Shown piece by piece: positions 25,942 to 62,231 of a stretch of DNA of 64,000 nucleotides. Location of the stretch: sequence record NC_070982.1; one strand, written 5' to 3'. A model generated the notes under the pieces. It did not search any database, was not told the DNA's origin, and worked only from the letters and a program-made list of their open reading frames with translations. The stretch is from Escherichia phage vB_EcoP-101114UKE3. How positions within the stretch are numbered: the stretch's first letter is position 1; the number at the start of each line of letters is the position of its first letter. A program made the position numbers and the translations under genes.

Positions 25942-28900
25942 ATGGCTAATTTAAAATCGTGGGAAGAAGCTTCCAAAGCTCCTGCGTATCTGAACGCCTC
26001 TCCAGAGCAACAGGCTCAAATGAGAGAACAATACAAGGCAGCAGGGGGCACTATTCCTGAGACTCAACCACAAGAGCAACCACAACAAGAAGAACGAGGT
26101 GCTATTGGGGAGTTTGCTCAAGGTGTGTCTAACGCTCTTCAATCAGGTGGTGCTAACATTGCAGCTAGTGCTGCTAAAGGTTTAGGTGGGCTGGTAGAGA
26201 TTGGTGAAAACTTAACTGGTTCGGAAACAAGCTATGGTAAGCGCATTCAAGAGAACTCTAAACAGTTGCTGGAAGAACGCTTATCTAAGATAGAAGATGG
26301 TTTTGGTAAAACAGCTGGTCAGTATGCTGGTGTTGCTGCTGATATTGGTTTGACAGTTGCAAACCCTGCTGTTGCTGCTGCTGTTATCGCAGCTCGTGAA
26401 ACAGGTCGTGCTTATGCTGATCAAACTCCTAAAGAAGATGAAGATAAATCAGTCTTAGATGCTGCTCTTGTTGGTGGTGCTAACTACGCTGCTCAGAAGA
26501 TCCTTCCGGGCATGACTGGTACAGCTTCTACTACTCTTGGTCGTGTAGGACAAAGCGTAGCCTCTAACGCAGTTGCTGGTGCTAAGGGTGGTGCTATTGT
26601 TGGTGCTGCTGAAGCTCAGAACAAATATGGGGATGACACTACTCTAGCTAACGTATTAGAAGGGGCTATTGAAGAGGGTGCACTCGGTGCTGCTTATGGT
26701 GGGGCGATTGGTGGGGTTCATGGGTTAATAAGCCGTCCTAGCCCTCAAGTGTTTGATCGTACTCCTGAGCATGTTAAGACTGACATTGCTGCTGAAGATG
26801 AGGCTATTCGTAAAGCTGCTAACGCTGATGAACTTCGTGAAGCCTATGCTAAAGCTGAGAATGCTAATGCTGCCTCTGCTTTAAACCTTCTGGATGAAAA
26901 TGGTTTCCGAATCACAGATGCAGTTGCTATGGACTCTCCTGCTGTTCAGCGTATATTAAATACAGACCAAAGTCGTGCAGAGAAAGCTGCTACGGTTCAG
27001 AAAGATAGCTCTAATGTTCCCGGTCTCAATCCTCTCGCTTCTCCTAAGAAGACTCAAGGTAAAGCTTTTGCTGACAATGAGTACAACCAGAAACAAGCTG
27101 TGGCAATGAAAGATGCAATGGCTGACTACACTAAAGATAACACCAAAGCCCTTACTGATGTTCTAGACAACCTAGACCGAGAGTTAGTAGCTCTGAGAGC
27201 AAGTGGTGATTTTACTGGTAGTGCTATTGACATTAAAAACCGTACTCAAGCTGATCGTGATTTTATTGATGCTTATAAAACTTTTTACAGTGAAGCTAAT
27301 CGTTTCAAAGCTCGTGATGGTGAAGACCTAAACAACTTCATTGATAAAGCTACTCAGTTGCAGAAGCTATCTGAAAATGTTTCTCCAGAAATGAAGAAGG
27401 CCATTGGTGGATTAAAGAAACTAAAAGGTATGCCTGAAGGTTTTAACCCTATCCAAGATGCTTTCACTCTGAATAATACAGCTAAGTTCATGAGTAACCA
27501 AGACCGTGGTTGGACCTCTCTGACTGATGACGGTTTTCGTGAAGCTCCGGCTCCTGTGTTAGTTAAGAATCCTCTCGGTGCAGCCAAGTATGTACTTAAC
27601 CGCTTTACTTCCGATCGTGCTCGTGCTCAACGTGAGAAGCAACAGTCAGCTAATAGTGAAGCTATCCGCTCTTTGGCTAGGGCTGATTTAGAAGTACAAC
27701 GAGCTAGGACTCAGGCTGAAGAAGCAAGAGCAAAAATGGAAGAAGAACCAACCACAGAAGACATCAAATTCCGTACTCAAAATGATGCACCTTCCGAACC
27801 GGTTCGTGAGGAGCCTTCTGCTACTACTGTGACGGAAGAAATTCCGTCCTCTCCAGCTCCAACTGAAACACCTCTTACTGCGAGGGATTTGGTTGCTCAA
27901 AGACGTGCTCTCCAACAAGCAGAGCTTAGACGTCAAGAAGCTGAAGCTGCTCAGGCTCAAGAAAGTGCTACACCAGAACCTGAACCACAGCAAGAAGCTC
28001 TTACAGCTAGAGAATTAGTAGCTCAGCGTAGGGCTGTAGCAGAGGCTAAGAAACGTCAAGAGGCAGAAGAAGCAGAACGTGCTAAAGAAGCTCCTGAGGA
28101 AGCCGTAGAAGAGCCTAAAGAGAAACCTGAGCCATTACCTGCTCGTGCTCCTAAAGCTCCTGAGAAGGCTCCTGAGCCTGTTAAACCGTCACTTGGTGTA
28201 GAGCGTCTAGCTTCTATGTCAACTGCTGCTCGTCAAGCAACGAAAGACCGTGCTGATCGATTTGCTCGTTCTTTGTATTCGGCTGCTGCTAAAGCTAAAG
28301 CCACTGCGGAAAATTTCCTTTCTTACAAGGGAGATCCTAAAGAGCTTATGCGTCGTATCCGTCAGGAAGACCAAGCAAACAACACACAGCGTCATGAAGA
28401 GATGGCTAGAAACCAACTAGCTTCACAGCAAGGCATTGCTTCTGCTAAATCTCAACATGTTCGTGCTTCTTTTGCTGATTGGGTGAAAGAACGTGGGTTG
28501 CCTTCTGATATTGCTACTAAGGCTTTACGGGCTGAAGAGAAAGGTTTAGGTGGGAACGTCACAAGTCTAGATTCACTGAAGCGAAGAGCTGAGCGTTTAT
28601 ATCAGAAACAAAGAGATGATGAGTTTGACCGTCTCTATCGAGAGGCTCTGGAAGAGAATAAAGCTTTTGATAAGAGAGATGCTCCTAAACTGGTAGACCA
28701 GAAGAAAGAGCTTCAGGATGAAATTGGTGCGTTGCTTGATGCTGAACCGTTACGTCCTGCTCAGAAAGATGCTATGCGTAGGATTATGGAAGACTTCGTG
28801 GAGAGTAAGTTTAAATCTTCAGAGAAAGCTGGAAGGGTTGAGGCTTTGGAAGTTGGTCAGATGAAGGATGTGTGGGATGGGTTTATTAATACCTATAACC

Positions 28901-30387
28901 GAGAAGTTAACATGTTCAACAAGGCTAACAAGAATTCTCAATACGAAGCAGCAGCTAAACACTTGCAAGCACGTCAAGAACGTCTTGAGACGCTCCGTAA
29001 CAGAGCTAAAGCTCGCAGTGATGCTAAGGCAGCCATGGAGGCTGAGAAGCAGTCCTTGGAGGCTATAGCGGCTCAGAAATCAGAGATAGAGAAGATGTTC
29101 AAAGAATTGCCTGAAAGTGTCAGAGAGGCTCAGGAAGGGCGTACTTTGAAACAGCTTGCTGCTCACCATGATAAGAACTCTCCAGTACCACCAGAGCGTT
29201 TCCGTAGTATCATTGAACGTATTCACAACGCTGAGAGTGATTACCTCGATCGCAAACGTCGTTTGACCGAAGCAGAGGAAGATGCTCGTGAAGCTAAGTG
29301 GAATAGGATGTATGAACAGGCTGAGGAAATGAACCGTAAGTTTGATATCGATGCTAGAGTGAAGAGAGATAAGGCTCTGAAGGAAGCTCAAGAACGAGAG
29401 AATGACTTAATGGCAGTTCAACGTCAGCGTGACGACATTCATAAGCGTTTGGTCAATACTCTGGAAGAGAAGGGAGTTTCTAGAGAAGATGCTGAAGCAT
29501 ATGCTGGGTCTTATATGGATAATCGGTATGCTTTGTTAGAGAAACCAATGACTCCAGTGGAACATCAGAATGCTCGTGCTCGTATCGAATCTGACGTAGA
29601 GAAGTTTGTTAAGAAATACGAAACAGCTACTCCAATCGAAAGAGAGATTGCTAAAGCAACTGGTGATGCAGATGGGAAACCTTCTGACTTAGATGCAGAA
29701 ACATTAAAAGCTATCGAAGATGCTCGTAAAGTTGATTCCGATTTTAAGAAACTCTTAGATGAAGAGAAGGAAATGGAGAAGATTCGTTCAGCTCTACCTG
29801 AAGATGAAAGATCTCAGGCGAACTCTGATATTCTGGAAAGTATTAAGAAACAGGAAGATGATTTTGCTAGCAAAGCAGAGAAAGCTTTTATTGAAGGGAA
29901 GGACTTGCAGGAGTTAGCGAGTGTTGCAGAAGTTCTAGATAGGGTTCATGGTGCAGACAAGGCTGGTAACAACCGTCGATTTGTACGTGCTCTACAGACT
30001 GCTGCCGAGAACAAGAAACGTTATGGGGATAATCCAGTGGCTTGGTTTAGTGCTGATGATTACTCTGCTATTGCGAAACTTGGTGCTGCTTCGGCAGGTG
30101 GTAACAAATCTCGAGCACTTGAGAAAATCTTTGGTTCTACAGCAGAACAAGCTAAAGGGAAACTTTTAGGGCGGGATGATGTAGCTAAGATTAGACGTGT
30201 GATTGAAGCGAATCCCAATGTTAAGATTCCTTCTTACAAGACAACTACTCGACAAGAGTACATGCAGTTCTTGGAGAAGTATAATGACGAGGGAGAGTTG
30301 AAAGTCAAACGTGGTTCTCTGTCTGACAAGTTGGAGAGAGGTAAGCGTCAAGCTAAACTCCGTGTTAGAGTTCGAGCTAAGGAGTAA
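25942..30387 (+). CDS. Giant coiled-coil virion protein, internal or ejection protein or tape-measure-like (1481 aa)
   Basis: A/E/K/R-rich helical repeats; last gene of the plus-strand module; RBS AAGGAGA. Confidence 0.55.
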   Translation: MANLKSWEEASKAPAYLNASPEQQAQMREQYKAAGGTIPETQPQEQPQQEERGAIGEFAQGVSNALQSGGANIAASAAKGLGGLVEIGENLTGSETSYGKRIQENSKQLLEERLSKIEDGFGKTAGQYAGVAADIGLTVANPAVAAAVIAARETGRAYADQTPKEDEDKSVLDAALVGGANYAAQKILPGMTGTASTTLGRVGQSVASNAVAGAKGGAIVGAAEAQNKYGDDTTLANVLEGAIEEGALGAAYGGAIGGVHGLISRPSPQVFDRTPEHVKTDIAAEDEAIRKAANADELREAYAKAENANAASALNLLDENGFRITDAVAMDSPAVQRILNTDQSRAEKAATVQKDSSNVPGLNPLASPKKTQGKAFADNEYNQKQAVAMKDAMADYTKDNTKALTDVLDNLDRELVALRASGDFTGSAIDIKNRTQADRDFIDAYKTFYSEANRFKARDGEDLNNFIDKATQLQKLSENVSPEMKKAIGGLKKLKGMPEGFNPIQDAFTLNNTAKFMSNQDRGWTSLTDDGFREAPAPVLVKNPLGAAKYVLNRFTSDRARAQREKQQSANSEAIRSLARADLEVQRARTQAEEARAKMEEEPTTEDIKFRTQNDAPSEPVREEPSATTVTEEIPSSPAPTETPLTARDLVAQRRALQQAELRRQEAEAAQAQESATPEPEPQQEALTARELVAQRRAVAEAKKRQEAEEAERAKEAPEEAVEEPKEKPEPLPARAPKAPEKAPEPVKPSLGVERLASMSTAARQATKDRADRFARSLYSAAAKAKATAENFLSYKGDPKELMRRIRQEDQANNTQRHEEMARNQLASQQGIASAKSQHVRASFADWVKERGLPSDIATKALRAEEKGLGGNVTSLDSLKRRAERLYQKQRDDEFDRLYREALEENKAFDKRDAPKLVDQKKELQDEIGALLDAEPLRPAQKDAMRRIMEDFVESKFKSSEKAGRVEALEVGQMKDVWDGFINTYNREVNMFNKANKNSQYEAAAKHLQARQERLETLRNRAKARSDAKAAMEAEKQSLEAIAAQKSEIEKMFKELPESVREAQEGRTLKQLAAHHDKNSPVPPERFRSIIERIHNAESDYLDRKRRLTEAEEDAREAKWNRMYEQAEEMNRKFDIDARVKRDKALKEAQERENDLMAVQRQRDDIHKRLVNTLEEKGVSREDAEAYAGSYMDNRYALLEKPMTPVEHQNARARIESDVEKFVKKYETATPIEREIAKATGDADGKPSDLDAETLKAIEDARKVDSDFKKLLDEEKEMEKIRSALPEDERSQANSDILESIKKQEDDFASKAEKAFIEGKDLQELASVAEVLDRVHGADKAGNNRRFVRALQTAAENKKRYGDNPVAWFSADDYSAIAKLGAASAGGNKSRALEKIFGSTAEQAKGKLLGRDDVAKIRRVIEANPNVKIPSYKTTTRQEYMQFLEKYNDEGELKVKRGSLSDKLERGKRQAKLRVRVRAKE

Positions 30388-43299: not shown

Positions 43300-43494
43300 T
43301 TAGATAACCTTGTGCTTATAGATGTTAGGGTTGTAGTAATGCAACCAGTTTATGTATTGTTTCTGTTCAAGGTAGTGTCTGCAATCATGACAAAAAGCAT
43401 GACCCAAACCTGTTTCCTCGTTCAGCTTGAAGTTGATAAGAAGCTTCTGCTTTTGACAGAAGCTACATGCTTTAGTGGGCTTCACGTAATGCAT
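43300..43494 (-). CDS. Small Cys/His-rich protein, possible zinc ribbon (about 64 aa)
   Basis: C-x2-C ... C-x2-C pattern; start uncertain because the ORF-track frame overlaps the ThyX-like 3' end and the RBS is weak. Confidence 0.25.
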   Translation of the reverse strand: MHYVKPTKACSFCQKQKLLINFKLNEETGLGHAFCHDCRHYLEQKQYINWLHYYNPNIYKHKVI

Positions 43495-44122
43495 CCCATG
43501 AGATTGGGAAAAGTTTACGAAGCTCTTCATCAACAGTTGATGCGAACACTCGTACTTCATACTGAGCATGGTCGGACAGTCGCTGACGACATAACTCTGA
43601 CCAGCCATATAAAGAACCTGTCCACACCCACTCAGTGATCATACCTTGAGGTAGAACGAATCGGGCTTGCTCTGGAGCAATAAACTTAATCAACTCATCA
43701 TATGACTCAAGAGCTGTTTCATATGCCCGATTAATCAGAACTAGTGCAGAGTTTTGCGCTCCCGTGGTGAGGAGATTCCCCGCACCTGCATGGAGGTCCG
43801 AAGGTCTTTCAAAAATCTCTTTAGGGATGAAGAGTTCAACTGCTCCATCTTTATACCGCCGGGACATTTCGTTCCACGAGAATCCAACTTGATGCTTGCC
43901 CAGCTGTCTCGCAATTGCGATTGGCGCTTTGCATCGGAAGCTAATTGTCGGATGGCGGAATGGTGTGACATGCTTTTCTCTGGCAAGGAACTTGATAAGG
44001 CGTTCATCTCGTTCATTTAACTCTCCTTCACGAGTAACCCCAAAGGAAACTCGAGCTGCATTAACAACAGATTTATCAGAACCCATTGCTTCAATTAGTG
44101 TTGCTTGTAATTGTTCGTTCAT
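43472..44122 (-). CDS. thyX: ThyX-like flavin-dependent thymidylate synthase homolog (216 aa), divergent
   Basis: ARVSFG, ARQ...NE-S-RRY and LPQG-x-T blocks fit the ThyX fold, but the RHR signature position reads KHQ. Confidence 0.5.
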   Translation of the reverse strand: MNEQLQATLIEAMGSDKSVVNAARVSFGVTREGELNERDERLIKFLAREKHVTPFRHPTISFRCKAPIAIARQLGKHQVGFSWNEMSRRYKDGAVELFIPKEIFERPSDLHAGAGNLLTTGAQNSALVLINRAYETALESYDELIKFIAPEQARFVLPQGMITEWVWTGSLYGWSELCRQRLSDHAQYEVRVFASTVDEELRKLFPISWDALREAH

Positions 44123-46840: not shown

Positions 46841-47374
46841 TTATACACCCTTAGATGCAACTACACCATTACTGCCGTTGTATCGACCCTTCACTGCATA
46901 AGAGTCATCACCAGCGTGAGAGTGTTCGAACATAACCATTTGACCAACACGCATCCCAGCACGAACTCGTAAGCTATGATTATGGGTAACGTTATGAAAT
47001 TCAAAGGTTAGTTTACTGCTGTTAAACCCTGCATCAGCCCAACCAGCATGGAGGTGGTTTAAACCACAACGAGCCATTGAGGAGCGAAGTACAAACAGGC
47101 TTGAGATGTTATCTGGAAGGTTAAACTCTTCCATTGAGTGCGCTAAGAAGAATTGCCCCGGAGTGATAACAATACCATCTTCAGGGATTTTTACTTCTTT
47201 CCACTTGAGGTTTTCTTTAGCATCAATGTCAACAATTCCGTCAGCCTGTTCTTCAACAAGGATAGTATCACCAATACGGATATCCACGCTAGCAGCGTTA
47301 ACATATTTATGCTCCGCATCTAAAAAGCCATTATCAATAACGCTGTGTAATTCTTGAGAACCTAAAAGACTCAT
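46841..47374 (-). CDS. dcd: dCTP deaminase / dUTPase-family enzyme (177 aa)
   Basis: SSMARCGL and GWADAGFNSSKLTFEF blocks typical of the dCTP deaminase family. Confidence 0.7.
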   Translation of the reverse strand: MSLLGSQELHSVIDNGFLDAEHKYVNAASVDIRIGDTILVEEQADGIVDIDAKENLKWKEVKIPEDGIVITPGQFFLAHSMEEFNLPDNISSLFVLRSSMARCGLNHLHAGWADAGFNSSKLTFEFHNVTHNHSLRVRAGMRVGQMVMFEHSHAGDDSYAVKGRYNGSNGVVASKGV

Positions 47375-48819
47375 GAGTTTCTGTTTCCTTGTACAGATGA
47401 TGCCAAATTATTAATCATGTTACGAGCTGTTTCACGAGATAGTGTAACACCTGCTAAGTTGTTATGAAGCTCACCAGATAGCTCACGAGCAGCAGCTCGA
47501 AGTTCTGTACCAAGTGTAGTATCGGAGTGAGCCAAACCATTACGACGACTATAAGGTCGAGGAGCTTCGTTAGCGTCATTAGCCAATGATGCAAAACCAA
47601 TATGAGCAGCTTCACGAGACGCTATAGTTGACACTCGATCTTCCGTAGGGGTTGGCAAATCACCAACTTCTACACGTTCTATATCACCAGCACGTAGACC
47701 CTGAACGACTGAGCTTACTGTTTCCCATGAACGACGAGAACGCTGTAAATCACCCATTGACGGAGAAGAAGCAGGTCGAACAGTTACTCCACCTGTATCA
47801 TGAGTGACATGCCATGTACGAGTATCCATTCCAGAAGAGCGTGCACTACCAAAACTGCCAGTGAAAGTGTCACGAGGTGCCATTGTAGGAGGAACTGCGA
47901 ATCTTTCCTGTTGCCAAGAATCGCGTCTGTTAGTTCCCGGAGTCCAAGGCTGCGTGATTGCTTCAGCACCTATAGTGGTTAATCCGCTAGACCATTCTGT
48001 CTGTAGGTTAACTTCCTCGTCCAGATAACTACGACCCCTTTCCTGAGGAATGTTTAATATAGTTTCCATCATCTTCAGGGTATAATGACGACGCTGATTC
48101 TGATATAAATTTACACCAGCCATAGGTCCAACTAAATCACTAATCAGGTGAACTTCTGGCTCACCGAAAGCTCCCATTGCAAGGTGCATATATTCGGTAG
48201 AACTGCTATAAACTGCAACAGTTGCTTCAGGCCACTTCTTGTGAACATACTTCATTTCACGACCAGATACCACAGGAATGTCACGAGTGTATGACATTGC
48301 AAACAAACCTTCGTTTGACACATACATGTCATCAAGAGACATGAACCCCTGACAGATCATAGGAAAGCGACGGCTTAAAGTATCCATATCCAAAGGTAGA
48401 TTAATCATCATCTGGATTTTAACTTGATCAATCTCAATTTCCAGAATCTCTTGGAAAGTGAAAAGTGCTTCAGCGTAAGTTGTCCCACTAACAGGCTGAA
48501 CTAGGCGAGATGTAGTTTGAAGCCCTTTACTCTCTGTCCAAGACAAGAAGTTGTCAAGGAACAGTGCAGCATTCATCACGTTAGCAGGGTTGTTTTCCTG
48601 ACGGGTGTTCCAACGAAACCCTCCTTGGACTAGGAAGATATCCACATCATTCGGAGTTCGGTTCTGGAAGAACGTATCACGGATAGCACCACCTGCAATA
48701 ACAGGGTAGATACCATCAGGAACTACGTTGTCTCTGATCAGATTGCGAATCAGATCAAGCCCTACGCTGAGGGCTTCTCCTTCTTGAAGGTTTAATTCAG
48801 ACAATGGAATCTTAATCAT
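47371..48819 (-). CDS. Nucleotidyltransferase-fold protein with long S/T/R/G-rich C-terminal region (about 482 aa)
   Basis: GG-x13-DVD pattern (VIAGGAIRDTFFQNRTPNDVDIF) fits Pol-beta-type NTase; ATG at 48819 sits 2 nt after the exonuclease stop. Confidence 0.5.
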   Translation of the reverse strand: MIKIPLSELNLQEGEALSVGLDLIRNLIRDNVVPDGIYPVIAGGAIRDTFFQNRTPNDVDIFLVQGGFRWNTRQENNPANVMNAALFLDNFLSWTESKGLQTTSRLVQPVSGTTYAEALFTFQEILEIEIDQVKIQMMINLPLDMDTLSRRFPMICQGFMSLDDMYVSNEGLFAMSYTRDIPVVSGREMKYVHKKWPEATVAVYSSSTEYMHLAMGAFGEPEVHLISDLVGPMAGVNLYQNQRRHYTLKMMETILNIPQERGRSYLDEEVNLQTEWSSGLTTIGAEAITQPWTPGTNRRDSWQQERFAVPPTMAPRDTFTGSFGSARSSGMDTRTWHVTHDTGGVTVRPASSPSMGDLQRSRRSWETVSSVVQGLRAGDIERVEVGDLPTPTEDRVSTIASREAAHIGFASLANDANEAPRPYSRRNGLAHSDTTLGTELRAAARELSGELHNNLAGVTLSRETARNMINNLASSVQGNRNS

Positions 48820-48821
48820 TT

Positions 48822-49370
48822 CTACATTTTCCAATTTAGAGATGGGGGATTCTTATAATCAAATCCAGCCATTTGGCAAAGACACATGTAAACCTTAACT
48901 GTCAAGTTAACGTCTTGCTCACAATACGTGAACATGTCTTCAGTGAATGCATCCCATGCTTCTTCCTGTTCACCATAATCACCCTTCAGCTCTCCCAGAA
49001 ATTCGCCCCATTGCTTGAGGCCATGACCGCGAGGGCCATGTCTAGGGTCGCCTTTGGGGTATTCTGGACTATCACCAATACGGTCAGGCTTGAGATATCT
49101 ACTCAGGCACAAAGTATCGAAGACGTTAAAGCGAAAAGGTATCACATGAGAATAAAACTTAAACAAAGCAGGAAGGTCAAAATCAATAATATTGTGACCT
49201 ATTACTACATCAGCTTCTTTCAGTTTGTGTAGTGCTTCTTCAATTTGGTGAGGGCGATACCCCCACCGCTCTCCAGATAATACATCAAATATCCAGATAC
49301 ACCAGACATTCTGAATACCATCATAGAGATTATCACCCTCGATATCAAACGCATACAGTTTCTTTACCAC
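48822..49370 (-). CDS. DnaQ-like 3'-5' exonuclease, stand-alone proofreading domain (182 aa); GTG start
   Basis: Exo I FDIE, Exo [13 protein letters not shown], Exo III YCEQD; GTG at 49370 preceded by GGAGG. Confidence 0.65.
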
Positions 49371-51189: not shown

Positions 51190-51396
51190 TTAGTAAAACG
51201 ATCGTATTTCTTCCCACACATCATCTTGCAAGTTTCTAAAACCCTGCAAGGTTTGCTTTGTTCTGTGAATAAATTCTTCAGAGTGCTTATCAGGTGTGAG
51301 CATACTGACAAACTTTTCATAGCGATTAATCTTCCACCGCATCTTCAAGTAGTCAGATTCCAGCTTTCTTAACTTCTGCCTGTCAGTTACTGTCAT
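51190..51396 (-). CDS. Small hypothetical protein (68 aa)
   Basis: ORF-track frame 51190..51492 trimmed to the ATG at 51396. Confidence 0.35.
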   Translation of the reverse strand: MTVTDRQKLRKLESDYLKMRWKINRYEKFVSMLTPDKHSEEFIHRTKQTLQGFRNLQDDVWEEIRSFY

Positions 51397-51814
51397 CCTT
51401 CTCACCTGCCAGATATGCTGTCCAGTCACCAGATTCAACCAGAACATCTTGTTCTTCGTCGATGTGATAAATCCACGCTTCCACAGTTTCACCGCTGTCC
51501 AATAATACTGGAATCAGTGTACGCTTGTAAAAGGTGTATGGGTTATCATTACCACGATGACCTTCCAGACCGTCATACGGACCTTCCAGACCAGCTTGGG
51601 TTGTTTCAAAGACTTCTACACGAACAGGCTTACCATTGCTGTCATGCTCCAAAGATACACTTGGGAAGTATGCTGTGCAATACTGATACAGGTTACAGTT
51701 GTTTACTGTCCACCCTTCACCAATAGACACACCACCTGCACGAGCATTGATAGCGTGGTTGTGTTGACCTTTACGAAGAGAACCATACGTTGCAACTAAT
51801 ACTTTATCAGACAT
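51383..51814 (-). CDS. AIG2 / gamma-glutamyl cyclotransferase-like protein (143 aa)
   Basis: N-terminal YGSL motif (VATYGSLRKG) with downstream acidic residues; RBS AAAAGG. Confidence 0.55.
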   Translation of the reverse strand: MSDKVLVATYGSLRKGQHNHAINARAGGVSIGEGWTVNNCNLYQYCTAYFPSVSLEHDSNGKPVRVEVFETTQAGLEGPYDGLEGHRGNDNPYTFYKRTLIPVLLDSGETVEAWIYHIDEEQDVLVESGDWTAYLAGEKDDSN

Positions 51815-51818
51815 TACA

Positions 51819-52016
51819 TTACCTTTTGTTTAAAATTTCTTTTGTACAAGAAGTCCCGTTACACACGAGAACTGTTTGAGTTATAGAATCGACAACTGTT
51901 ACATGGCTGCCGCATTGAGTTATGATTTGACCTCTCCCTGAATCTTTAGAGATGCATTCATCAGCGGCGATCGCTGACACACTGAATAAGGAGAGGAAAA
52001 ATAGAATCTTTTTCAT
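51819..52016 (-). CDS. Small secreted cysteine-rich protein (65 aa)
   Basis: Signal peptide MKKILFFLSLFSVSAIA followed by about 48 residues with 4 Cys. Confidence 0.45.
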   Translation of the reverse strand: MKKILFFLSLFSVSAIAADECISKDSGRGQIITQCGSHVTVVDSITQTVLVCNGTSCTKEILNKR

Positions 52017-52022
52017 GGCTGC

Positions 52023-52439
52023 TTACCAATCATGTTGGAAACCAGAATATCCAGAGAAGATGATTGATCGGATTGGCTTTTCAGGGAATCCTTCAAAACA
52101 TCCCTTAATGGCTTTCTTGGTTTCATCAGAAATTGACTCTTTTTCACCAAACCAATATTCTTCAAAAATATCAGAGAAGATATAAGTTCGGTATCTTTCC
52201 AAGTCATAAAAACCTTCCACTGCACTTGTAACAGCTCTACTAATTACACTTGAAGCTACAGGAAATAAGTCACCGTGTTCCAGAAACAAGCACCAACGAT
52301 CAAAGAGAGGAATCTCTTCATCTTTCAGAAGACTTTCTAACTCTTCCTTTGCCTCTTTCTTGTGCTTCTCAAAGAGGTTTTTGGAATACTCTACATCTAA
52401 GATACGACTTTTAAACATATCCAGTTTATTATTAACCAT
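52023..52439 (-). CDS. Hypothetical protein (138 aa)
   Basis: RBS AGAGG. Confidence 0.45.
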   Translation of the reverse strand: MVNNKLDMFKSRILDVEYSKNLFEKHKKEAKEELESLLKDEEIPLFDRWCLFLEHGDLFPVASSVISRAVTSAVEGFYDLERYRTYIFSDIFEEYWFGEKESISDETKKAIKGCFEGFPEKPIRSIIFSGYSGFQHDW

Positions 52440-52496
52440 TTTACAACCTCTAGTTAAATTCGAACTAGCCTCCTCTTTCGAAGAGGCTAAAGCAAA

Positions 52497-52682
52497 TTAT
52501 TCTACTTCGAAGTGTTTGATCACACCAGTCAGTACATCAGATTGGAATGTACCCACTAGCTCTGTACCTCGGAAAAAGTTAACACTTGTTCCAAGTGATT
52601 CAAAGCGATCTGCTTGAATGTCCAGAGATTGAATATTTCCTTCTGCTGACATTGTACGAAACATGATTGTGTATTTATTCAC
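52497..52682 (-). CDS. Small hypothetical protein (61 aa), GTG start
   Basis: GTG at 52682 with AAGGGAG RBS, overlapping the upstream stop. Confidence 0.35.
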   Translation of the reverse strand: MNKYTIMFRTMSAEGNIQSLDIQADRFESLGTSVNFFRGTELVGTFQSDVLTGVIKHFEVE

Positions 52683-52921
52683 AGACTCGTTACTCCCTTA
52701 TCTGCTTGTGCAATTGCGATGATACGCTCAGCACATTCCATTGAATACTTATCACCTCGTTTGAGGAAGGTGATGATTGCAGAGAACTGATTACCAATCA
52801 TTCTCTTATTTGTGATACCAAACTCTTCACAGAGTTGGTTGATAGCTTTACGAGAGCCTACAATCAGAGGCTCTTTTTCTTCGGTCATTCCACGGCTGAT
52901 CAAATCTTCGATAGACAACAT
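52679..52921 (-). CDS. Small hypothetical protein (80 aa)
   Basis: ORF in the operon. Confidence 0.4.
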   Translation of the reverse strand: MLSIEDLISRGMTEEKEPLIVGSRKAINQLCEEFGITNKRMIGNQFSAIITFLKRGDKYSMECAERIIAIAQADKGVTSL

Positions 52922-52947
52922 TACAAATTCCTTTTTGTTTAATTTAA

Positions 52948-54183
52948 TTACAGAGTTACTGCTACTTCGCTACCTTCAACATTGACAGACTCTAACTTGC
53001 GAGGGTTATGAATCTGGACTGGATTGACCGGAACGTTCCAACCACTGCGGTAGAAGTTACGACCATCACAGAACAAAATGACATTGGCAGACATTGCATT
53101 CGGTTGAAGGTTGTTGTGGACGTGACGGATATCTGCAATCCAGTAACCACGAGACAAAGTGTAACCAGTAGGTGCATTACGAATAGTTTGAGTATTCATC
53201 TGACCTTCTAGCTGCATTTCTTCAGGAACTACATCTACCGAATCAACCGGCTGTGCTACTTGTCCTTCCAGTGCAAAGTTTTCATCATCAGCACTTTCAA
53301 TATCATCCACTAACTCACCGTCTCCATCTTCAATCGGAGTCTGGTAAACCACTTTATACTGAGGAGTATAGAGAGGGTTCTGAGCTTTAACAAACTCAAG
53401 AATGTTATGACGGTAGGTATCCAGAGTTGTACCAGTCAGGCCCGGTGCTGTATTAACTTCCAGTACCCACGCTTCTTGACCTTTGGTGATAATATCAACT
53501 GCACCGAAATCCAGACCCATTGATTCAACAGCTTTCACTGCATTGATCAGAGAGGCGTCATTCGGAGCATCTGTGAAGGAGCTTGAGTAAACCCAGCCAG
53601 TGTGGTGATTACGAATATCTTCACGATAGTTAGGGTCTTCGCGATAACCATTGCGACGAATCTTCTTCTGAACATAGGTGATTACACCTTTGAACACATG
53701 GACACGCCACTCACGACGTGGGCCTTGAATGCCTTTAGTGTACAGTTCAGCTCGACCAAGACCATCACCCGGTTCTACAACAACAATGCCCGAACCAGAG
53801 TGACCAGTCAGCTCATGGCGCTCATACACAATATTACCAGTGTTTGACCACTCTTGAGCAGTCTCTTGAACATCTGTGTATTCCACAGTTTTAACACCTG
53901 CTTGGTCCATCACGCTGAAAGCACGACGTTTGTTCGCTGCCATATGTAAGGCTGCGGTACGGTTAAGGACGGTTGCAGAACCAAAGAATGATTCAGGATA
54001 GCGACGGTTCCCGTAGTTAACAACCACATCACCTTCACGAGAACGCCAGCGGCTATTCTCTGAAAGAAGACCCATCACGTTAGCATTGATGCGTTCATCA
54101 CGGATAGTATCACTGATAGCAGATACTAGAGCGTTAACAGAATCAGACGGGCCATACGGAAGAACACGGATACGAGTAGTCAT
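52948..54183 (-). CDS. ATP-grasp ligase (411 aa)
   Basis: Glycine-rich GHSGSGIVVV loop and C-terminal VLEVNTAPGLTG motif typical of ATP-grasp enzymes. Confidence 0.7.
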   Translation of the reverse strand: MTTRIRVLPYGPSDSVNALVSAISDTIRDERINANVMGLLSENSRWRSREGDVVVNYGNRRYPESFFGSATVLNRTAALHMAANKRRAFSVMDQAGVKTVEYTDVQETAQEWSNTGNIVYERHELTGHSGSGIVVVEPGDGLGRAELYTKGIQGPRREWRVHVFKGVITYVQKKIRRNGYREDPNYREDIRNHHTGWVYSSSFTDAPNDASLINAVKAVESMGLDFGAVDIITKGQEAWVLEVNTAPGLTGTTLDTYRHNILEFVKAQNPLYTPQYKVVYQTPIEDGDGELVDDIESADDENFALEGQVAQPVDSVDVVPEEMQLEGQMNTQTIRNAPTGYTLSRGYWIADIRHVHNNLQPNAMSANVILFCDGRNFYRSGWNVPVNPVQIHNPRKLESVNVEGSEVAVTL

Positions 54184-54185
54184 TT

Positions 54186-54416
54186 TTAGATACCTTTTAG
54201 TTTAAGAATTTCGTTACGACAGGATTGAATTTTAGCTTCGATTGCCCAATACTCAGCGAACATTTCGTCTTCTTGGGCATCGCTTGGAGAGTCGATTAAG
54301 TTAAAAGCAAACGGATACAGCTTTCGCTGCTCCGTTACCAGTTGTTGAAGTCGGAGTTGTTGATACTCCAGCATTGTCAGGTGAGGCTTAGCTCCCTTGC
54401 TTGACATGAGGCTCAA
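54186..54416 (-). CDS. Small hypothetical protein (about 76 aa), possible TTG start
   Basis: TTG at 54416 with AAGGGG RBS; the first ATG is at 54407. Confidence 0.35.
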   Translation of the reverse strand: MSLMSSKGAKPHLTMLEYQQLRLQQLVTEQRKLYPFAFNLIDSPSDAQEDEMFAEYWAIEAKIQSCRNEILKLKGI

Positions 54417-54621
54417 CTTTAATCCCCTTCATTTTAACATAGTCAGCCAACACGTTATTGATAACGGTTGGAAAAGGGATTTCTACTGGAGAGTCAACCA
54501 GCTTCCCAATACCTTCTTGCATCCACTTCTGGATTGCTCGGAGGTTATCACATCCTGTGCTTGTCATCGGAATACGGCGGGTAGTTACCACGTTATCCAA
54601 CATCAGTTTACGAACTTCCAT
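54388..54621 (-). CDS. Small hypothetical protein (77 aa)
   Basis: RBS AAGAGG. Confidence 0.4.
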   Translation of the reverse strand: MEVRKLMLDNVVTTRRIPMTSTGCDNLRAIQKWMQEGIGKLVDSPVEIPFPTVINNVLADYVKMKGIKVEPHVKQGS

Positions 54622-54632
54622 AACTATACCTC

Positions 54633-56666
54633 TTAGTGTTTACCTTTACAGTAATCTGAATTACAGATCACCCTGTTTTCTTTGTTCAGTGAGCAAGTTT
54701 CTGCATCACGCCACGGAATTTGTTTATAACAGACTGCACAAAACCCAATTGAAGTCCAGAGGGCTTTTGTAAACTCAGCTGTTCGTTGTCCATCGTAACT
54801 GACAACTGTTTTTCGGAGAGAGGTTGACTTTTCTGGAAATGTCTCCGCTTTCTCAGCGGGTACCTCCTTTGGGGCATTCTTTGGACCATAAACAGAGATG
54901 GCATAAGTATCACCACCACGTTTTTCCAAATACGAATTAGGAACATCTGCAAGTGTGATGTCCCCTGAACGTTTTGCTGAGCTGACCATTACAATCATAC
55001 GGCTAAGCATACGTTCATCAACACGAACAGCTACTTCAGGACGACGTGGGTTGGTTGTGTCTACTGCTTTAGTCCAAATATAACCTTCAGATAGAGTAAC
55101 ATTCTTTACTTTATCTTTGATTTCTTTGGAGCAGATATAACAAACGTCTTCACCACGAAGTTTACTCATTTCGTTGTCAAACTCGAAATCAGTCTTGACT
55201 TCACCACAGATAGCACATACACCCAAAGGCACATCTTCTTCCTCTTCAGAGGTTTTAGATAACGCTTCGAAGCATTCTGGATGCCAGTATGCCTGATAAG
55301 CAAACACAGCCTTACGAGCATCTTTCCAGTCAATGTGCTTATCACAACCACCACAGTCACCATGAGAGTGAGATTCCCAGAACTTACGAGTGACTTCTAC
55401 ACCATTCTTAGTGATGAAGGAGTCCTCTGCATCAAAAGGGATATCATCATCAAAATCAGCAGTAGTGCTTTGAGGCTCCTTATCTGTAGCATCAACAAAC
55501 AGCCCTGAAGTTAGTACGAGGCGAATCATACTGTCCACTTCGGAGATACAAGCAATCGTCCCGCGATATACTACCTTTGGGTTTTCAAGAGCCTTAAGAT
55601 ATTCATCTTTGGCTACGTTGTGAACATCCCCTTCGACATACTCTTGAGCTTTATCATCGTAGATGTAACCAACCATCTTACCACGATCTGTGTTGTTATA
55701 AGCATGGAACTCGTGAGGAATAATATCCACACGACCATCACGACGATAAGGAAGACCGCGATCGGCAGCCAGTTTGTTCTGGTCTTCAATCGCTTTACGA
55801 CGACGAATGTCTCCGCTTGTCACGCCGGGCTTGTCGTCTTTGTTTCCGTAAATGTCGCTTGTGCTGCTGCTTGATTTGTTTGTCTGTTGGTTCTGATAAA
55901 GAGAGGAGTTCGAGTAATAGCCGCCCCAGCGACTCGTTACCGTAAAAACCGGAAGCGTGTGCTCCACCTCTTGAACCAGAGTCATACGACTGTTAGACAC
56001 ATCAAAGATATACTCAGTTCCCACTTTACATTCGAAGTGGTCATTGATATGGTTCTTATGGGACTTAGAACGCTCTAAAATCCACATAAGCATAGCTTCT
56101 TCAGAAGCTCCAAACCAATCCAAACCACAGCGGGCTAGGTGGAAAGGACGCTCATCATTACGGATAATGTGAAGTGTGTTGTCTTTAGCATCATGCCAAA
56201 TCAAAGTGAATGCACCATCCAGTTTTTGGATAGTCTCTGCTGCTCCAATGGTGTTAATTGAGTGGCAGATGTTTTCACTATCAACTTCGAAACGCTTACT
56301 GTCAGGAAGGAGATCTTGATCTAACAGGGTTCCATTATGAACCAGAGTAATATCCCCGTGAGTAAATGGGTGAGCATTTCGAGCATTGACAGCCCCACGA
56401 GTGGCATGTCGGCTGTGACCAACAATCCACGAAGGAGGAACTACGTAGTTCGTAAGCCCTTTGGTAATATTTGTATATTCTGTCTGGAGCATAAAAGCAT
56501 AAGAAGGAAGAGCTTCTTTATAAGAGAAGACTTGCTTTTCACCTTTACGCTGACCAAACACACCAGTTGAGTGCTGTCCACGGAAAACACCAGCATACAG
56601 AAGTTGGTTGAAAATGTCCAAATCTGCTGAGGTCATGTTGCCGCCAGCTAATACGATACCACAAAT
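54633..56666 (-). CDS. Ntn-hydrolase / class-II glutamine amidotransferase-like protein fused to a CxxC-rich C-terminal region (about 677 aa); predicted AUU start
   Basis: The frame upstream of the first ATG reads stop-K-I-CGIVLAGGNM..., giving the GAT-II N-terminal Cys; ATT at 56664-56666 has AGGTGG 8 nt upstream; RHATRG and NAHPF blocks; at least five C-x2-C pairs in the C-terminal third. Confidence 0.65.
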   Translation of the reverse strand: MCGIVLAGGNMTSADLDIFNQLLYAGVFRGQHSTGVFGQRKGEKQVFSYKEALPSYAFMLQTEYTNITKGLTNYVVPPSWIVGHSRHATRGAVNARNAHPFTHGDITLVHNGTLLDQDLLPDSKRFEVDSENICHSINTIGAAETIQKLDGAFTLIWHDAKDNTLHIIRNDERPFHLARCGLDWFGASEEAMLMWILERSKSHKNHINDHFECKVGTEYIFDVSNSRMTLVQEVEHTLPVFTVTSRWGGYYSNSSLYQNQQTNKSSSSTSDIYGNKDDKPGVTSGDIRRRKAIEDQNKLAADRGLPYRRDGRVDIIPHEFHAYNNTDRGKMVGYIYDDKAQEYVEGDVHNVAKDEYLKALENPKVVYRGTIACISEVDSMIRLVLTSGLFVDATDKEPQSTTADFDDDIPFDAEDSFITKNGVEVTRKFWESHSHGDCGGCDKHIDWKDARKAVFAYQAYWHPECFEALSKTSEEEEDVPLGVCAICGEVKTDFEFDNEMSKLRGEDVCYICSKEIKDKVKNVTLSEGYIWTKAVDTTNPRRPEVAVRVDERMLSRMIVMVSSAKRSGDITLADVPNSYLEKRGGDTYAISVYGPKNAPKEVPAEKAETFPEKSTSLRKTVVSYDGQRTAEFTKALWTSIGFCAVCYKQIPWRDAETCSLNKENRVICNSDYCKGKH

Positions 56667-56743
56667 TTTCTAATCCACCTGAAGGGTAAACCCTTTCATC
56701 TAATTAACCTTTAAATGCGCCCTGTATAAGAGCGCCCGTTGTG

Positions 56744-57844
56744 TTACAGCAGTCGTTCTAATTGCATTTCCAGATGGTCTGGAATATAACCAGTGACGTT
56801 ATCATCACTGCTACCTGATTCACGCATCAATGCAAACATGTGACGAATTTCACGAACCGTTGCGATTCGAGTGCTTTCAATCTGAGGGGTGTAGTAGGTC
56901 ATGATCTCTTCGTAGACACTGTTGGCATTACCGCGCACATATCCCAAGAAACCATAGAAGTCATTCATATCACGTAAGTTGATAAGGACTTCACCATCAG
57001 GGCCAGTCTGTTGCACACGAACACGACCAACCAAAGTTACAGATTGCTCACGACAGAAGAGAATATCACGAGCAAGACGATACCCTTCAGTGAGATCACT
57101 GTCTCTTGGAGTATAGTCTAGGGGTAGATGTTGAATCATAGGAGCGAAGCGCAGCTCATTCAACTTCTCAACATAAGCTTCATTGTCTAAATCTGCATAT
57201 TCAACAGCCAGTTTCTTGAGAACCAAGAAGCGGTTGACCAGATTCAGAAGTTGGCTCTTTTTCCACTTCGGCTCTGAGATACGGAACTCAACAGAACCAA
57301 ATTGAGATAGAGGCAAAAGATTAAGGGAGGTGTATTTATCCCAGCTATTAACAAGAGAGTGGAAGAAAGCTTCCCCGTCTCGGTTGAACGCTGACGAAGC
57401 ATTCATAACTTGTGCTTGAACGACAGCAAAAGCTGGACAGAAGTTGCTACGATAGCGATGGTATCCAGAACATTTGAACATCATCTTTTCATAGAACGTC
57501 CATCCAAGAATAACTTTCTTAAGGATATTACTATCAGCGTCACGCATATCCATATGAACGTGAGTGGAGCAGCGCCAAGTTCCCTCGGCTCCAGAATCCT
57601 GTACTGCTTCACTCAGATTGTTAATAGCACGAAGTAATTCTTCACCGTTGTAAGGTCGTGCACATACTAATTCACAACCATCACGAAGAGAGCCATCTTC
57701 AGTACAAACCCACATATCAGCGTCAATGTCAGTTGTACCTTCGACTTCTAACTCAATACCAACACCACACTGAAAAGCAATACTTGGATGCGGTTCAGAT
57801 AAGCGAGGGTTACGGTATCCAAAAACTTGTGCTACGGTTGTCAT
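56744..57844 (-). CDS. Amidoligase-like (carboxylate-amine ligase, glutamine synthetase-like fold) protein (366 aa)
   Basis: GVGIELEVEG near the N-terminus and a downstream STHVHMD motif; genomic context with GAT-II-like and AIG2-like genes. Confidence 0.45.
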   Translation of the reverse strand: MTTVAQVFGYRNPRLSEPHPSIAFQCGVGIELEVEGTTDIDADMWVCTEDGSLRDGCELVCARPYNGEELLRAINNLSEAVQDSGAEGTWRCSTHVHMDMRDADSNILKKVILGWTFYEKMMFKCSGYHRYRSNFCPAFAVVQAQVMNASSAFNRDGEAFFHSLVNSWDKYTSLNLLPLSQFGSVEFRISEPKWKKSQLLNLVNRFLVLKKLAVEYADLDNEAYVEKLNELRFAPMIQHLPLDYTPRDSDLTEGYRLARDILFCREQSVTLVGRVRVQQTGPDGEVLINLRDMNDFYGFLGYVRGNANSVYEEIMTYYTPQIESTRIATVREIRHMFALMRESGSSDDNVTGYIPDHLEMQLERLL

Positions 57845-58467
57845 AATGATTCCACCAACTCTACATTATATGATGACAGGTCTGAAGAAATATGCTTGAA
57901 CTTCTCCAGAAGGTTTAAAGATTGACGACCATTGTCGCCATAACCAGCTTCAAGAAGCACGTTTCCAACGTAAGCCCCTTTGTAATAAACTTTTCCATCG
58001 ACAGGATTGATATAGATGAAACGAGTAACCAACCCTTCAAACTCTGGATTAAACAGGTTATACACCAAATCACCCGGAATCGAACGTCCGAGAGAAGGTG
58101 GAGTACCACGAAGTTTATTCCCCATCAAGCCTTTAGCTCGCTGACGAACAGGGTTGATATGGGTCCAGCTCACCACGTTATTACCATGCTGAAGGTATCC
58201 TACATCTGGAGACTCCAGAATGAGGCTGTGATCAAACACTGGGATATTACTAACAATCTGACGTTCAAACTGACCTTCGGAGTTTTTAGTCCAGCGTTCC
58301 GCCTCAAACACTAAAGACATTTCAGCGTCGTGTGAGTAGTCGTCGATATCAAAGTTACCTTGCTGACGAACATCAAGCACATATAGAGGGAGGTTTTTAC
58401 CATCAGGTGATCGCTGAGCAATCCATGTTCCACAATAATAGTGTTGAAAATCTCTTAACAAGCTCAC
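57841..58467 (-). CDS. Hypothetical protein (208 aa), GTG start
   Basis: GTG at 58467 with AAGGTGA RBS; no early in-frame ATG. Confidence 0.45.
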   Translation of the reverse strand: MSLLRDFQHYYCGTWIAQRSPDGKNLPLYVLDVRQQGNFDIDDYSHDAEMSLVFEAERWTKNSEGQFERQIVSNIPVFDHSLILESPDVGYLQHGNNVVSWTHINPVRQRAKGLMGNKLRGTPPSLGRSIPGDLVYNLFNPEFEGLVTRFIYINPVDGKVYYKGAYVGNVLLEAGYGDNGRQSLNLLEKFKHISSDLSSYNVELVESL

Positions 58468-58476
58468 AATATCACC

Positions 58477-59283
58477 TTATACAATCTGGAGTTTAGAGGA
58501 GAATTTATCTGCTTCTTTAACATCGTTACTGTTGATGATGTTGTGAAGCTTTTCAATTGGAAGGCGAGAGTGAAGTGACATCAATACTTCCATATCACAG
58601 CCTTGAACAACCTTATCAACTTGCTCATAAACAAACTTGCGGGTTGACTTCTCGCCAATCCAGAAGTTAGAAAGAGAACGATATTCAATACCGTAATCCT
58701 TGTAACGAATGGCAGAAGCCTTTCCGTATAACTCTTTACGACGAGTGTCTTTATCCATGATTACAGCTGGCAAGGACAGGAAATAATCACACAACACACC
58801 CAACATCATTTGAGTTTGTCGAGTAATCTCTAAAGTCCCGGAGACACCAAGGTGCACATGACCCCCAGCAGTACGCAAACCCTTATTAGTTGCGACCGGT
58901 GAAGGGTTCTTTTGTCCAGTGAAGGCATTGAAATCAGGAGTACAACCAAATACAAAGGCTGACGGATGGAAAGATTCAAGCTCTTCTGAAGTGAACACAT
59001 GAGAGCTAATCCCAAGTGCTGCCTCCATGCCACGTTCATTGAGAACTTTGTTAGTCAGATCAATACCACGCTGAATGTTATCATCAAACGCTTCAAACCC
59101 TTCCTGTGGGTTAATATCAAACTCGGCCAGAACGTTGTCTTCTTGAAGACGAACATCAGGAGCCAGATCAATTTTATTGTCTTTAGAACAGCCCAGCTTA
59201 CCAGCCACAGAGGTGATAATACCGGAAGCAGTACGAACAAACATTTCAGGGTCAGAGCCAATAAGGAAAGCGCGCTTAGTCAT
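58477..59283 (-). CDS. Second amidoligase-like protein candidate (268 aa)
   Basis: ATG at 59283 with GGAG RBS; LIGSDPEMFV and GGHVHLG motifs parallel the E-rich and HVH motifs of 56744..57844. Confidence 0.35.
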   Translation of the reverse strand: MTKRAFLIGSDPEMFVRTASGIITSVAGKLGCSKDNKIDLAPDVRLQEDNVLAEFDINPQEGFEAFDDNIQRGIDLTNKVLNERGMEAALGISSHVFTSEELESFHPSAFVFGCTPDFNAFTGQKNPSPVATNKGLRTAGGHVHLGVSGTLEITRQTQMMLGVLCDYFLSLPAVIMDKDTRRKELYGKASAIRYKDYGIEYRSLSNFWIGEKSTRKFVYEQVDKVVQGCDMEVLMSLHSRLPIEKLHNIINSNDVKEADKFSSKLQIV

Positions 59284-61990: not shown

Positions 61991-62231
61991 ACAACCTCTT
62001 CTTTGAGCTTAAAAAAGGACTCTCCTAAGAGAGCCAAGCTTTAAGGCCAATTAAATAGATATCACCCAATATCTGTGGATAACCTGCTCTTAAAATATTC
62101 TATCCGACGGATGTTCGAGGATTATTCCTCTCCCTAGCATCGGCCCCATACGGGAAAGATTAAATTAAGTTTAGGTTAGTTGAGCCAGAATAGCTCACAT
62201 AGCCCTCTGATACTCACAAGGGCTATAGATG

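Follow-up and report, generated by a model that had tools for sequence, protein, structure and literature searches.

An Amidoligase_2 gene, a COOH-NH2 ligase gene and a conserved partner form the core of the phiEco32-type phage cassette

Introduction

The phiEco32-type cassette of podoviruses encodes, in this order, a COOH-NH2 ligase of type 2, a small open reading frame (ORF), an Amidoligase_2 protein, a class-II glutamine amidotransferase (GATase), an ATP-grasp protein and a gamma-glutamyl cyclotransferase (GGCT). It was reportedly first described in phiEco32 by Iyer, Abhiman, Burroughs and Aravind in 2009 (Mol Biosyst 5:1636), and Hardies et al. are said to have termed it the 'peptidoglycan modification cassette' in 2013 (J Virol 87:9189). 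Here we analyse the corresponding locus of Escherichia phage vB_EcoP-101114UKE3 in a stretch of 64,000 nucleotides (NC_070982.1; the window). The analysis centers on P1 (Amidoligase_2), P2 (COOH-NH2 ligase type 2) and q208, a protein encoded between them.

In papers citing these two reports, a peptidoglycan-modification cassette is listed for phiEco32, 7-11, LUZ24, PaP3, tf, RIO-1 and CW02, and it is proposed to form three unusual peptide bonds and perhaps to block superinfection. The LUZ24-like Pseudomonas phage UFV-P2 has the identical gene order, through to the primase and helicase genes. The P1/P2 pair is the core of this already described cassette, which is annotated in Pfam and PHROGs, and its recognition here is a rediscovery. 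More than 15 years after the first prediction, we found no product, substrate or phenotype of the cassette in the searchable literature. The cassette comprises three ATP-dependent ligases and an amidotransferase.

Results

An initial annotation of the window, made from its sequence, had described P1 and P2 as divergent amidoligase-like paralogs that share an E-rich N-terminal motif and an HVH motif. Both ORFs are present on the minus strand, and re-translation from window coordinates recovered the motifs quoted for them (Table 1). P1 is a member of the Pfam family Amidoligase_2 (34.2 bits against a gathering cutoff of 22, E 3.1e-8) and matches its PHROG with E 4e-142. Its homologues match the same family (29/29 and 43/44), and permissive scans of these 29 and 44 proteins found no second Pfam family. 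P2 is a member of COOH-NH2_lig (34.2 bits, gathering cutoff 25, E 2e-8), a family named after phiEco32 and described as 'Phage phiEco32-like COOH.NH2 ligase-type 2', and matches its PHROG with E 3e-112. We found 440 P2 homologues, and those tested all match COOH-NH2_lig (31/31 and 44/44).

The motif arrangement is indeed parallel, and the likeness is not confined to the HxH motif. When 80 homologues of each protein are compared, both families show their invariant or nearly invariant residues in one common order: E31/E33, D50/E58, H95/H97, R130 and E186/R188 in P1, and D11/E13, D49/E54, H142/H144, R182 and E200/R202 in P2. The metal and phosphate sites of glutamine synthetase (GS) follow the order ExE, E..E, HxH, R and ExR, and this order is found in both families. 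The description of the N-terminal motif as E-rich suits P1 (ELEVE) and applies only loosely to P2 (DPE).

Direct comparison of the two proteins gave less. BLASTP found no match between P1 and P2. With narrow alignments drawn from a large protein database, hhalign aligned only the HxH motif (E 0.25). With broad alignments of 80 sequences each, drawn from the 79 viral loci compared below, it gave P 0.015, while 24 unrelated control pairs gave P 0.035-0.66; the score improves little on that of the best control and is therefore not decisive alone. A greedy alignment placed R91..H95xH97, R130 and E186xR188 of P1 onto R137..H142xH144, R182 and E200xR202 of P2. Both proteins could also be aligned with the family profile of E. 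coli YbdK. P2 aligned over 207 collinear columns (P 0.0073), pairing G-x-D-P-E with G-I-E-L-E, QEDN..E with KHD..E and GGHVHxG with GQHVHVG. P1 aligned with all three anchor motifs (P 0.014), and q208, used as a control, gave P 0.76. The YbdK profile is shallow, since a genome scan for YbdK relatives gave only sequences at least 76% identical.

GCS2 matches below the threshold occur in 3/31 and 1/44 members of the P2 family, including P0182 (residues 15-93, E 3.7e-4, 20.4 bits against a cutoff of 21) and P0199 (residues 19-90). Neither P1, P2 nor their families match Gln-synt_N or Gln-synt_C, which sets them apart from glutamine synthetase proper. Sequence and profile searches of the PDB with P1, P2, q208 and the upstream proteins q316 and q405 gave only chance matches or none. 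Taken together, the data support P1 and P2 as ATP-dependent carboxylate-amine ligases of the GS/GCS2 type that come from two old, separate families and are distant relatives. The term paralogs applies at the level of the superfamily only. Membership of P2 in the superfamily is suggested indirectly, by its Pfam family, the sub-threshold GCS2 matches and the YbdK profile alignment.

The predicted structure of P1 has a core with a GS/GCS2 fold (approximately residues 25-195), followed by a helical C-terminal domain of 170 residues. The core has the GS-type catalytic fold, starting near residue 25. Structural neighbours of P1 include the GS homologues 4hpp, 8wwu and GmaS 9qur, which form gamma-glutamyl-amines. 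The neighbours in BFVD are all of the Amidoligase_2 type among the best 50 matches listed; one of them bears the name 'LIM domain containing protein'. Lineages differ strongly in the C-terminal domains of both P1 and the GATase.

Two starts were considered for P2, the GTG at 59328 of the ORF listing and the ATG at 59283. The ATG is the better start because a GGAG Shine-Dalgarno sequence lies upstream of it, the PHROG alignment runs from residue 16 of the longer ORF, and the annotation of the relative Bas87 agrees. P2 also carries an insert that is absent from P1 and YbdK. It contains an FGCxPDxN motif whose cysteine, C114 (58942..58944, minus strand), is invariant in 80/80 homologues. Such a residue is unusual among GS-type ligases and could be structural or catalytic.

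The q208 gene is the sole separator of P2 and P1, as had been noted initially. It follows the P2 stop after 9 nucleotides and overlaps the P1 start by 4 nucleotides (ATGA). The protein has no match in Pfam, NCBIfam, PADLOC or PDB sequences. Its relatives among 1.84e9 clustered representative proteins number 86 and are all stand-alone; these representatives include no informative fusion, and no Pfam domain was found in the longer ones. A structural model (pLDDT 85.8) predicts two small beta barrels, residues 15-104 and 151-205, joined by a loop, a fold that appears SH3/Tudor-like. The loop is the most conserved sequence of the protein (P106-VRQRAKG-113, motif R-x3-[KR]-G): of 72 diverse homologues, 67 retain R108 and 70 retain G113, and position 112 is K, R or Q. 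It has no universally conserved Lys or acidic residue. The C-terminus is not conserved across the family and has no conserved Gln or Glu. The hhalign scores (P 0.33-0.76) led us to reject the reading of q208 as a third, degenerate ligase. A Pup-like modifier was likewise rejected, as q208 is folded and has no conserved terminus. It is probably a non-catalytic scaffold or substrate-presenting subunit.

To compare loci, we scanned viral contigs with the P2 alignment, which gave 508 relatives, kept the best 79 loci, called their ORFs and ran iterated hidden Markov model searches. Grouped by P2 identity, the 79 loci represent 39 lineages at the 70% level and 18 at the 50% level, and the five-gene cassette set was found in 39 lineages. 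The order P2 > q208 > P1 is kept in 75 loci; the GATase, the ATP-grasp ligase and the gamma-glutamylamine cyclotransferase (GGACT) can switch sides. P2, q208 and P1 are the invariant core of the cassette in phiEco32-, LUZ24-, 7-11- and RIO-1-like podoviruses. Where a Peptidase_C26/class-I GATase gene is found (gamma-glutamyl hydrolase family, Pfam E 1.6e-22), it lies upstream of P2, for example in loci L019, L021, L024, L047, L049, L051, L060 and L062. GGACT occurs without Peptidase_C26 in 47 loci and Peptidase_C26 without GGACT in 16; 6 loci have both genes and 10 have neither, and at least 4 of these 10 are truncated by a contig end. The two look like partial substitutes for each other. They are unrelated enzymes that both cleave gamma-glutamyl-amines, and their partial interchange therefore argues that the pathway makes such a bond.

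Table 1. Positions in the window of the cassette genes, their neighbours and the conserved motifs, with occurrence in the compared loci. Motif conservation is given as homologues with the residue out of 80.
Feature	Position	Strand	Family or conservation	Loci
q405, unknown, 405 residues	60235..61452	-	PHROG 13063	only phiEco32-like loci (8)
q316, unknown, 316 residues, 8-nucleotide overlap directly upstream of P2	59276..60226	-	PHROG 13102	13
P2, COOH-NH2 ligase type 2, 268 residues	58477..59283	-	Pfam PF14395, PHROG 3815	
P2 D11-P-E13-M-F15, first acidic strand	59239..59253	-	D11, E13 80/80; aligns with YbdK G-I-E17-L-E19 (hhalign)	
P2 Q47-E-D-N-V-L-A-E54-F, second acidic strand	59119..59145	-	D49, E54 80/80	
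P2 R137-T-A-G-G-H142-V-H144-L-G	58846..58875	-	R137, H142, H144 80/80; aligns with YbdK GQH136VH138VG and P1 R91..H95xH97	
P2 R182	58738..58740	-	80/80	
P2 R193-Y-K-D-Y-G-I-E200-Y-R202, ExR strand	58678..58707	-	R193, K195, E200, R202 80/80; E200xR202 aligns with P1 E186xR188	
q208, conserved partner, 208 residues, GTG start	57841..58467	-	PHROG 4877	75/79
q208 basic loop P106-VRQRAKGLMGN-K118	58114..58152	-	pLDDT <50 at residues 108-117, yet conserved	
P1, Amidoligase_2, 366 residues	56744..57844	-	Pfam PF12224, PHROG 7469	79/79
P1 G29-I-E31-L-E33-V-E35	57740..57760	-	G29, E31, E33 80/80; aligns with YbdK GIE17LE19	
P1 D50-G-S-L-R-D-G-C-E58	57671..57697	-	D50, E58 80/80	
P1 R91-C-S-T-H95-V-H97	57554..57574	-	H95, H97 80/80; aligns with YbdK H136/H138	
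P1 R130	57455..57457	-	80/80	
P1 E186-F-R188, ExR strand	57281..57289	-	E186, R188 79/80; aligns with YbdK GTVE237VR239	
Class-II (Ntn) GATase, 677 residues, ATT start	54633..56666	-	Pfam GATase_6, E 2.6e-14	77/79
q77, small protein between GATase and ATP-grasp genes	54388..54621	-	Pfam DUF7195, E 3.3e-19	22, same position
ATP-grasp ligase, RimK/alpha-L-glutamate-ligase-like, 411 residues	52948..54183	-	PHROG 2599, E 9e-170	73/79
DUF7020 gene, between ATP-grasp region and GGACT	52023..52439	-	E 1.4e-19	
GGACT/AIG2-like, 143 residues	51383..51814	-	Pfam PF06094, E 8.9e-16	53/79
Peptidase_C26				22/79
GGACT or Peptidase_C26				69/79

The GATase gene begins with an unusual codon. Its start region (56637..56666) reads ATT-TGT-GGT, giving I/M-C-G (I/M-CGIVLAGG), and lies 7 nucleotides past an AGGTGGA Shine-Dalgarno sequence. 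Only the ATT at 56666 yields an N-terminal catalytic Cys, and the GlmS profile then aligns from residue 2; the first ATG (56636) gives a product without the Cys nucleophile. The Bas87 annotation uses the same ATT start. The catalytic Cys-Gly terminus is kept in 71/79 loci: ATT-Cys occurs throughout the phiEco32-like loci and also in L023 and L062, which represent two unrelated lineages, and ATG-Cys in 64 other loci. Three Cys-rich repeats of the form CxxC...CxxC, which match Pfam LIM weakly (E 0.007), lie in the last ~250 residues of the GATase (54633..55380, minus strand). In most other loci the GATase is shorter (~370-550 residues) and lacks this extension. Fusions of GATase and amidoligase exist in other phages.

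In NCBIfam the ATP-grasp ligase matches MptN (2.5e-9) and rimK_fam (1.5e-6), both below the family cutoffs; D-Ala-D-Ala ligase matches are weak (E 4.9e-5). The DUF7020 stretch is matched by the relatives IME267 and 4E8 and unmatched by Bas87, SU7 and EK010, whose alignments begin at query 453-456; this part of the cassette region therefore seems to be variable. The proteins q316 and q405 are doubtful members of the cassette. Their profiles align with E 8.5e-5 over 136 columns when iterated alignments are used and with E 0.13 when 8-sequence alignments are used, and the two may be paralogues of each other. Other lineages have an unrelated-looking ORF of ~300 residues at this position, with weak profile matches to both (E 1e-3 and 3e-3).

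The Amidoligase_2, COOH-NH2 ligase type 2, class-II GATase, ATP-grasp and GGCT/AIG2 genes are all on one strand (51383..59283) and make up a cassette of the phiEco32 type. They are tightly packed on the strand of the early and replication genes, just upstream of the primase and helicase genes. Cumulative GC skew peaks at ~28000..30000, where the coding strand switches from plus genes to minus early/replication genes, which places the cassette in the leftward-transcribed arm. Near the cassette, only one hairpin followed by a T-run convincingly resembles a terminator. It is at 62018..62035 (minus strand; GGCTCTCTTAGGAGAGTC followed by CTTTTTT), upstream of the gene q120, and could mark the start of the transcription unit. 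A scan for sigma-70 promoters and terminators performed no better than on shuffled sequence, and PADLOC gave no match.

The 10-kb stretch around both ligase genes is 100% identical to that of Escherichia phage vB_EcoP-101114BS3 and 95-99% identical to those of IME267, 4E8, SU7 and the BASEL phages Bas86 and Bas87. More distant relatives (ECBP2, KBNP1711, Bas88/89) show 74-89% identity. Phage 4E8 is classified in Gordonclarkvirinae, genus Kuravirus. Several of the related records already label the two genes 'amidoligase enzyme' or 'COOH.NH2 ligase', and the phiEco32 homologue of P2, annotated 'COOH.NH2 ligase', is 80.5% identical. P2 is present in 307 of 50,697 sequenced phage records (~0.6%). 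The hosts of cassette phages include Escherichia, Pseudomonas, Vibrio, Aeromonas, Salmonella, Proteus and marine hosts.

Discussion

Our analysis points to P1 and P2 as two distinct COOH-NH2 ligases of the GS/GCS2 type that form the cassette core together with q208 and make separate ligations, a reading that we consider likely. The initial proposal of two ligation steps or two substrate specificities is supported as an interpretation. Our data establish the identity of the genes, the fold of P1, the conserved residues and the order and joint occurrence of the genes; from the fold and the neighbouring genes we infer the chemistry, the roles of the partners and any complex as follows. By analogy with members of the fold whose structures are solved, each ligase would use its Glu/His cluster to bind Mg-ATP and would convert the carboxylate of a substrate into an acyl phosphate; attack by an amine would then yield an amide or isopeptide bond. 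The cassette could carry out at least two separate ligation steps, or three with the RimK-like ATP-grasp ligase. The Cys1 class-II GATase would most likely release ammonia from glutamine for the amidation of one activated carboxylate; in an alternative role, it could trim a gamma-glutamyl group as EgtC does. The partner genes suggest that at least one carboxylate is the gamma-carboxyl of glutamate. At least one of the bonds formed may link a gamma-glutamyl group to an amine and be removed or recycled afterwards, which we propose because of the GGACT here and the Peptidase_C26 gamma-glutamyl hydrolase in some other lineages.

Several points weigh against this reading. The profile scores of P1 with P2, P1 with YbdK and P2 with YbdK are marginal (P 0.007-0.016) and improve little on the best control (P 0.035). 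The GS fold also includes amidases such as Dop, and one of the two proteins could be an amidase instead of a ligase. The matches of the ATP-grasp and GATase proteins to named NCBIfam families are far below the family cutoffs, which makes the analogies to known substrates loose. The 79 loci stem from the best 80 of 508 matches, or the nearest 16%, so that their frequencies describe relatives of the query and not the whole family. We found no biochemical or genetic data on any cassette protein in the searchable literature.

The acceptor candidates rank in the order soluble gamma-glutamyl peptide or amine, peptidoglycan precursor, protein and DNA. Gamma-glutamyl groups that are later removed are found in the PuuA/PuuD, GshA/GshB/GGCT and butirosin BtrJ/BtrG pathways. 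A soluble product of the cassette, for instance a glutathione-like peptide or a polyamine conjugate, could carry the gamma-glutamyl group as a handle or protecting group until its removal by GGACT or Peptidase_C26. Such a pathway would account for the presence in most loci of GGACT or a PuuD-type C26 hydrolase (Table 1), which are partly interchangeable, and for the gamma-glutamyl-amine-forming GS homologues among the structural neighbours of P1. Against it, a universal, non-enzymatic SH3-like subunit would be unusual in a small-molecule pathway, the strongly variable C-terminal domains of P1 and the GATase suggest host-specific partners, and no candidate product suggests itself. We regard a soluble metabolite as possible though somewhat unlikely.

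The published proposal concerns peptidoglycan precursors. In it, the three ligases would act on precursors in the cytoplasm and either restore or change the stem peptide's unusual bonds (gamma-D-Glu, D-Ala-D-Ala type, iso-Gln amidation), with GGACT and the GATase as degrading or recycling enzymes, and the altered surface would block superinfection or the timing of lysis would shift. It has been stated for exactly this cassette in the citing papers, there are as many ligases as unusual bonds, and the ATP-grasp protein does have its weak D-Ala-D-Ala ligase matches. However, the best matches of that protein are the alpha-L-glutamate ligases MptN and RimK and not Ddl, and no cassette protein matched a Mur-ligase, transpeptidase or cell-wall-binding family in the Pfam and NCBIfam scans. 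The proposal gives no role to the universal q208, and the cassette adjoins replication genes, not lysis genes. It is purely bioinformatic, with no experiment found in the searchable literature, and appears unlikely to us.

Tagging of proteins or other macromolecules would cast the two GS-fold proteins as a writer and eraser like PafA and Dop, or as two writers, with q208 as adaptor or target and GGACT or Peptidase_C26 as erasers. The matches to YbdK and GS outscore those to PafA and Dop, no proteasome or Pup-like gene is present, and q208 lacks both a conserved C-terminal Gln/Glu and a universal Lys or acidic residue in its loop, so that we find tagging decidedly doubtful. In a more specific version, P2, q208 and P1 would form a hetero-oligomeric writer in which q208, with its flexible basic loop, recruits a macromolecule, be it a nucleic acid or a protein of host or phage, and the two ligases tag it with gamma-glutamyl groups or peptides, to be reversed by GGACT or Peptidase_C26. 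If true, this triad would be a phage-encoded conjugation system, analogous but unrelated to pupylation, for host takeover or counter-defence; we consider it quite improbable.

Close relatives are reported to be highly resistant to restriction-modification systems without a known DNA modification pathway (PMC11990801), and the ligases might decorate a base or its precursor and so underlie the restriction resistance of Gordonclarkvirinae. Restriction sites are not depleted in the window (EcoRV 28, 14 expected; EcoKI 7, 6 expected), viral metagenomes contain amidoligase and amidotransferase genes together with genes for thymidine hypermodification, and the cassette adjoins replication genes. Hypermodification is nevertheless very improbable, because five type II enzymes (RsaI, HpaI, EcoRV, SmaI and HaeIII) cut the virion DNA of phage tf, a carrier of the same cassette, and this DNA was cloned; moreover, no 5-hmdU kinase, aGPT-Pplase or hydroxymethylase family was seen beside the cassette, and the BASEL authors suspect instead a locus with dCTP deaminase and nucleotidyltransferase genes of a role in DNA modification. 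EcoRI sites in the window number 11 against 23 expected, and restriction sites are not generally avoided. A dCTP deaminase gene (Pfam DCD, E 1.6e-34) followed by a 487-residue ORF is found in the region of 46841..48834 and 43472..44122 (both minus strand), with ThyX and a ferritin-like protein nearby. The 487-residue ORF is called 'nucleotidyltransferase' in the annotation of relatives and has no Pfam or PADLOC match.

The comparative results should ease the design of experiments. They provide a fixed core, the interchange of GGACT and Peptidase_C26, a conserved Cys1 in the GATase, and BASEL relatives, for which infection of E. coli K-12 with restored O16 O-antigen has been reported.

Compared with glutamine synthetase and the gamma-glutamyl-amine synthetases (GlnA, PuuA, GmaS, PA5508 4hpp), P1 and P2 lack the N-terminal beta-grasp domain. 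Nothing indicates ring oligomers for P1 and P2. Scores with PafA and Dop are lower than with YbdK and GS. The locus also differs from pupylation systems, as it has no disordered Pup-like protein with a C-terminal GGQ or GGE and no proteasome genes, and q208 is folded and ~200 residues long. With glutathione metabolism (GshA, GshB, GGCT) and butirosin synthesis (BtrJ, BtrG), in which gamma-glutamyl serves as a removable group, the cassette shares the combination of a GS-like ligase, an ATP-grasp protein and a gamma-glutamyl cyclotransferase. This likeness is in enzyme classes only; there is no orthology, no acyl carrier protein or pyridoxal phosphate enzyme, and no evidence for a thiol or aminoglycoside product. 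Sequence identity to YbdK/GCS2 (PDB 1tt4; Pfam PF04107) is ~12%, and neither protein reaches the GCS2 gathering score. P1 adds its helical C-terminal domain to this fold, and P2 adds the insert with FGCxPDxN. The closest system is the phiEco32-type cassette itself, which has the same families in the same order. Nothing essential differs, and the locus is one more member, with local features of its own: a 677-residue GATase that starts at ATT and has Cys-rich repeats in its C-terminal half, the extra upstream genes q405 and q316, and DUF7020 before GGACT.

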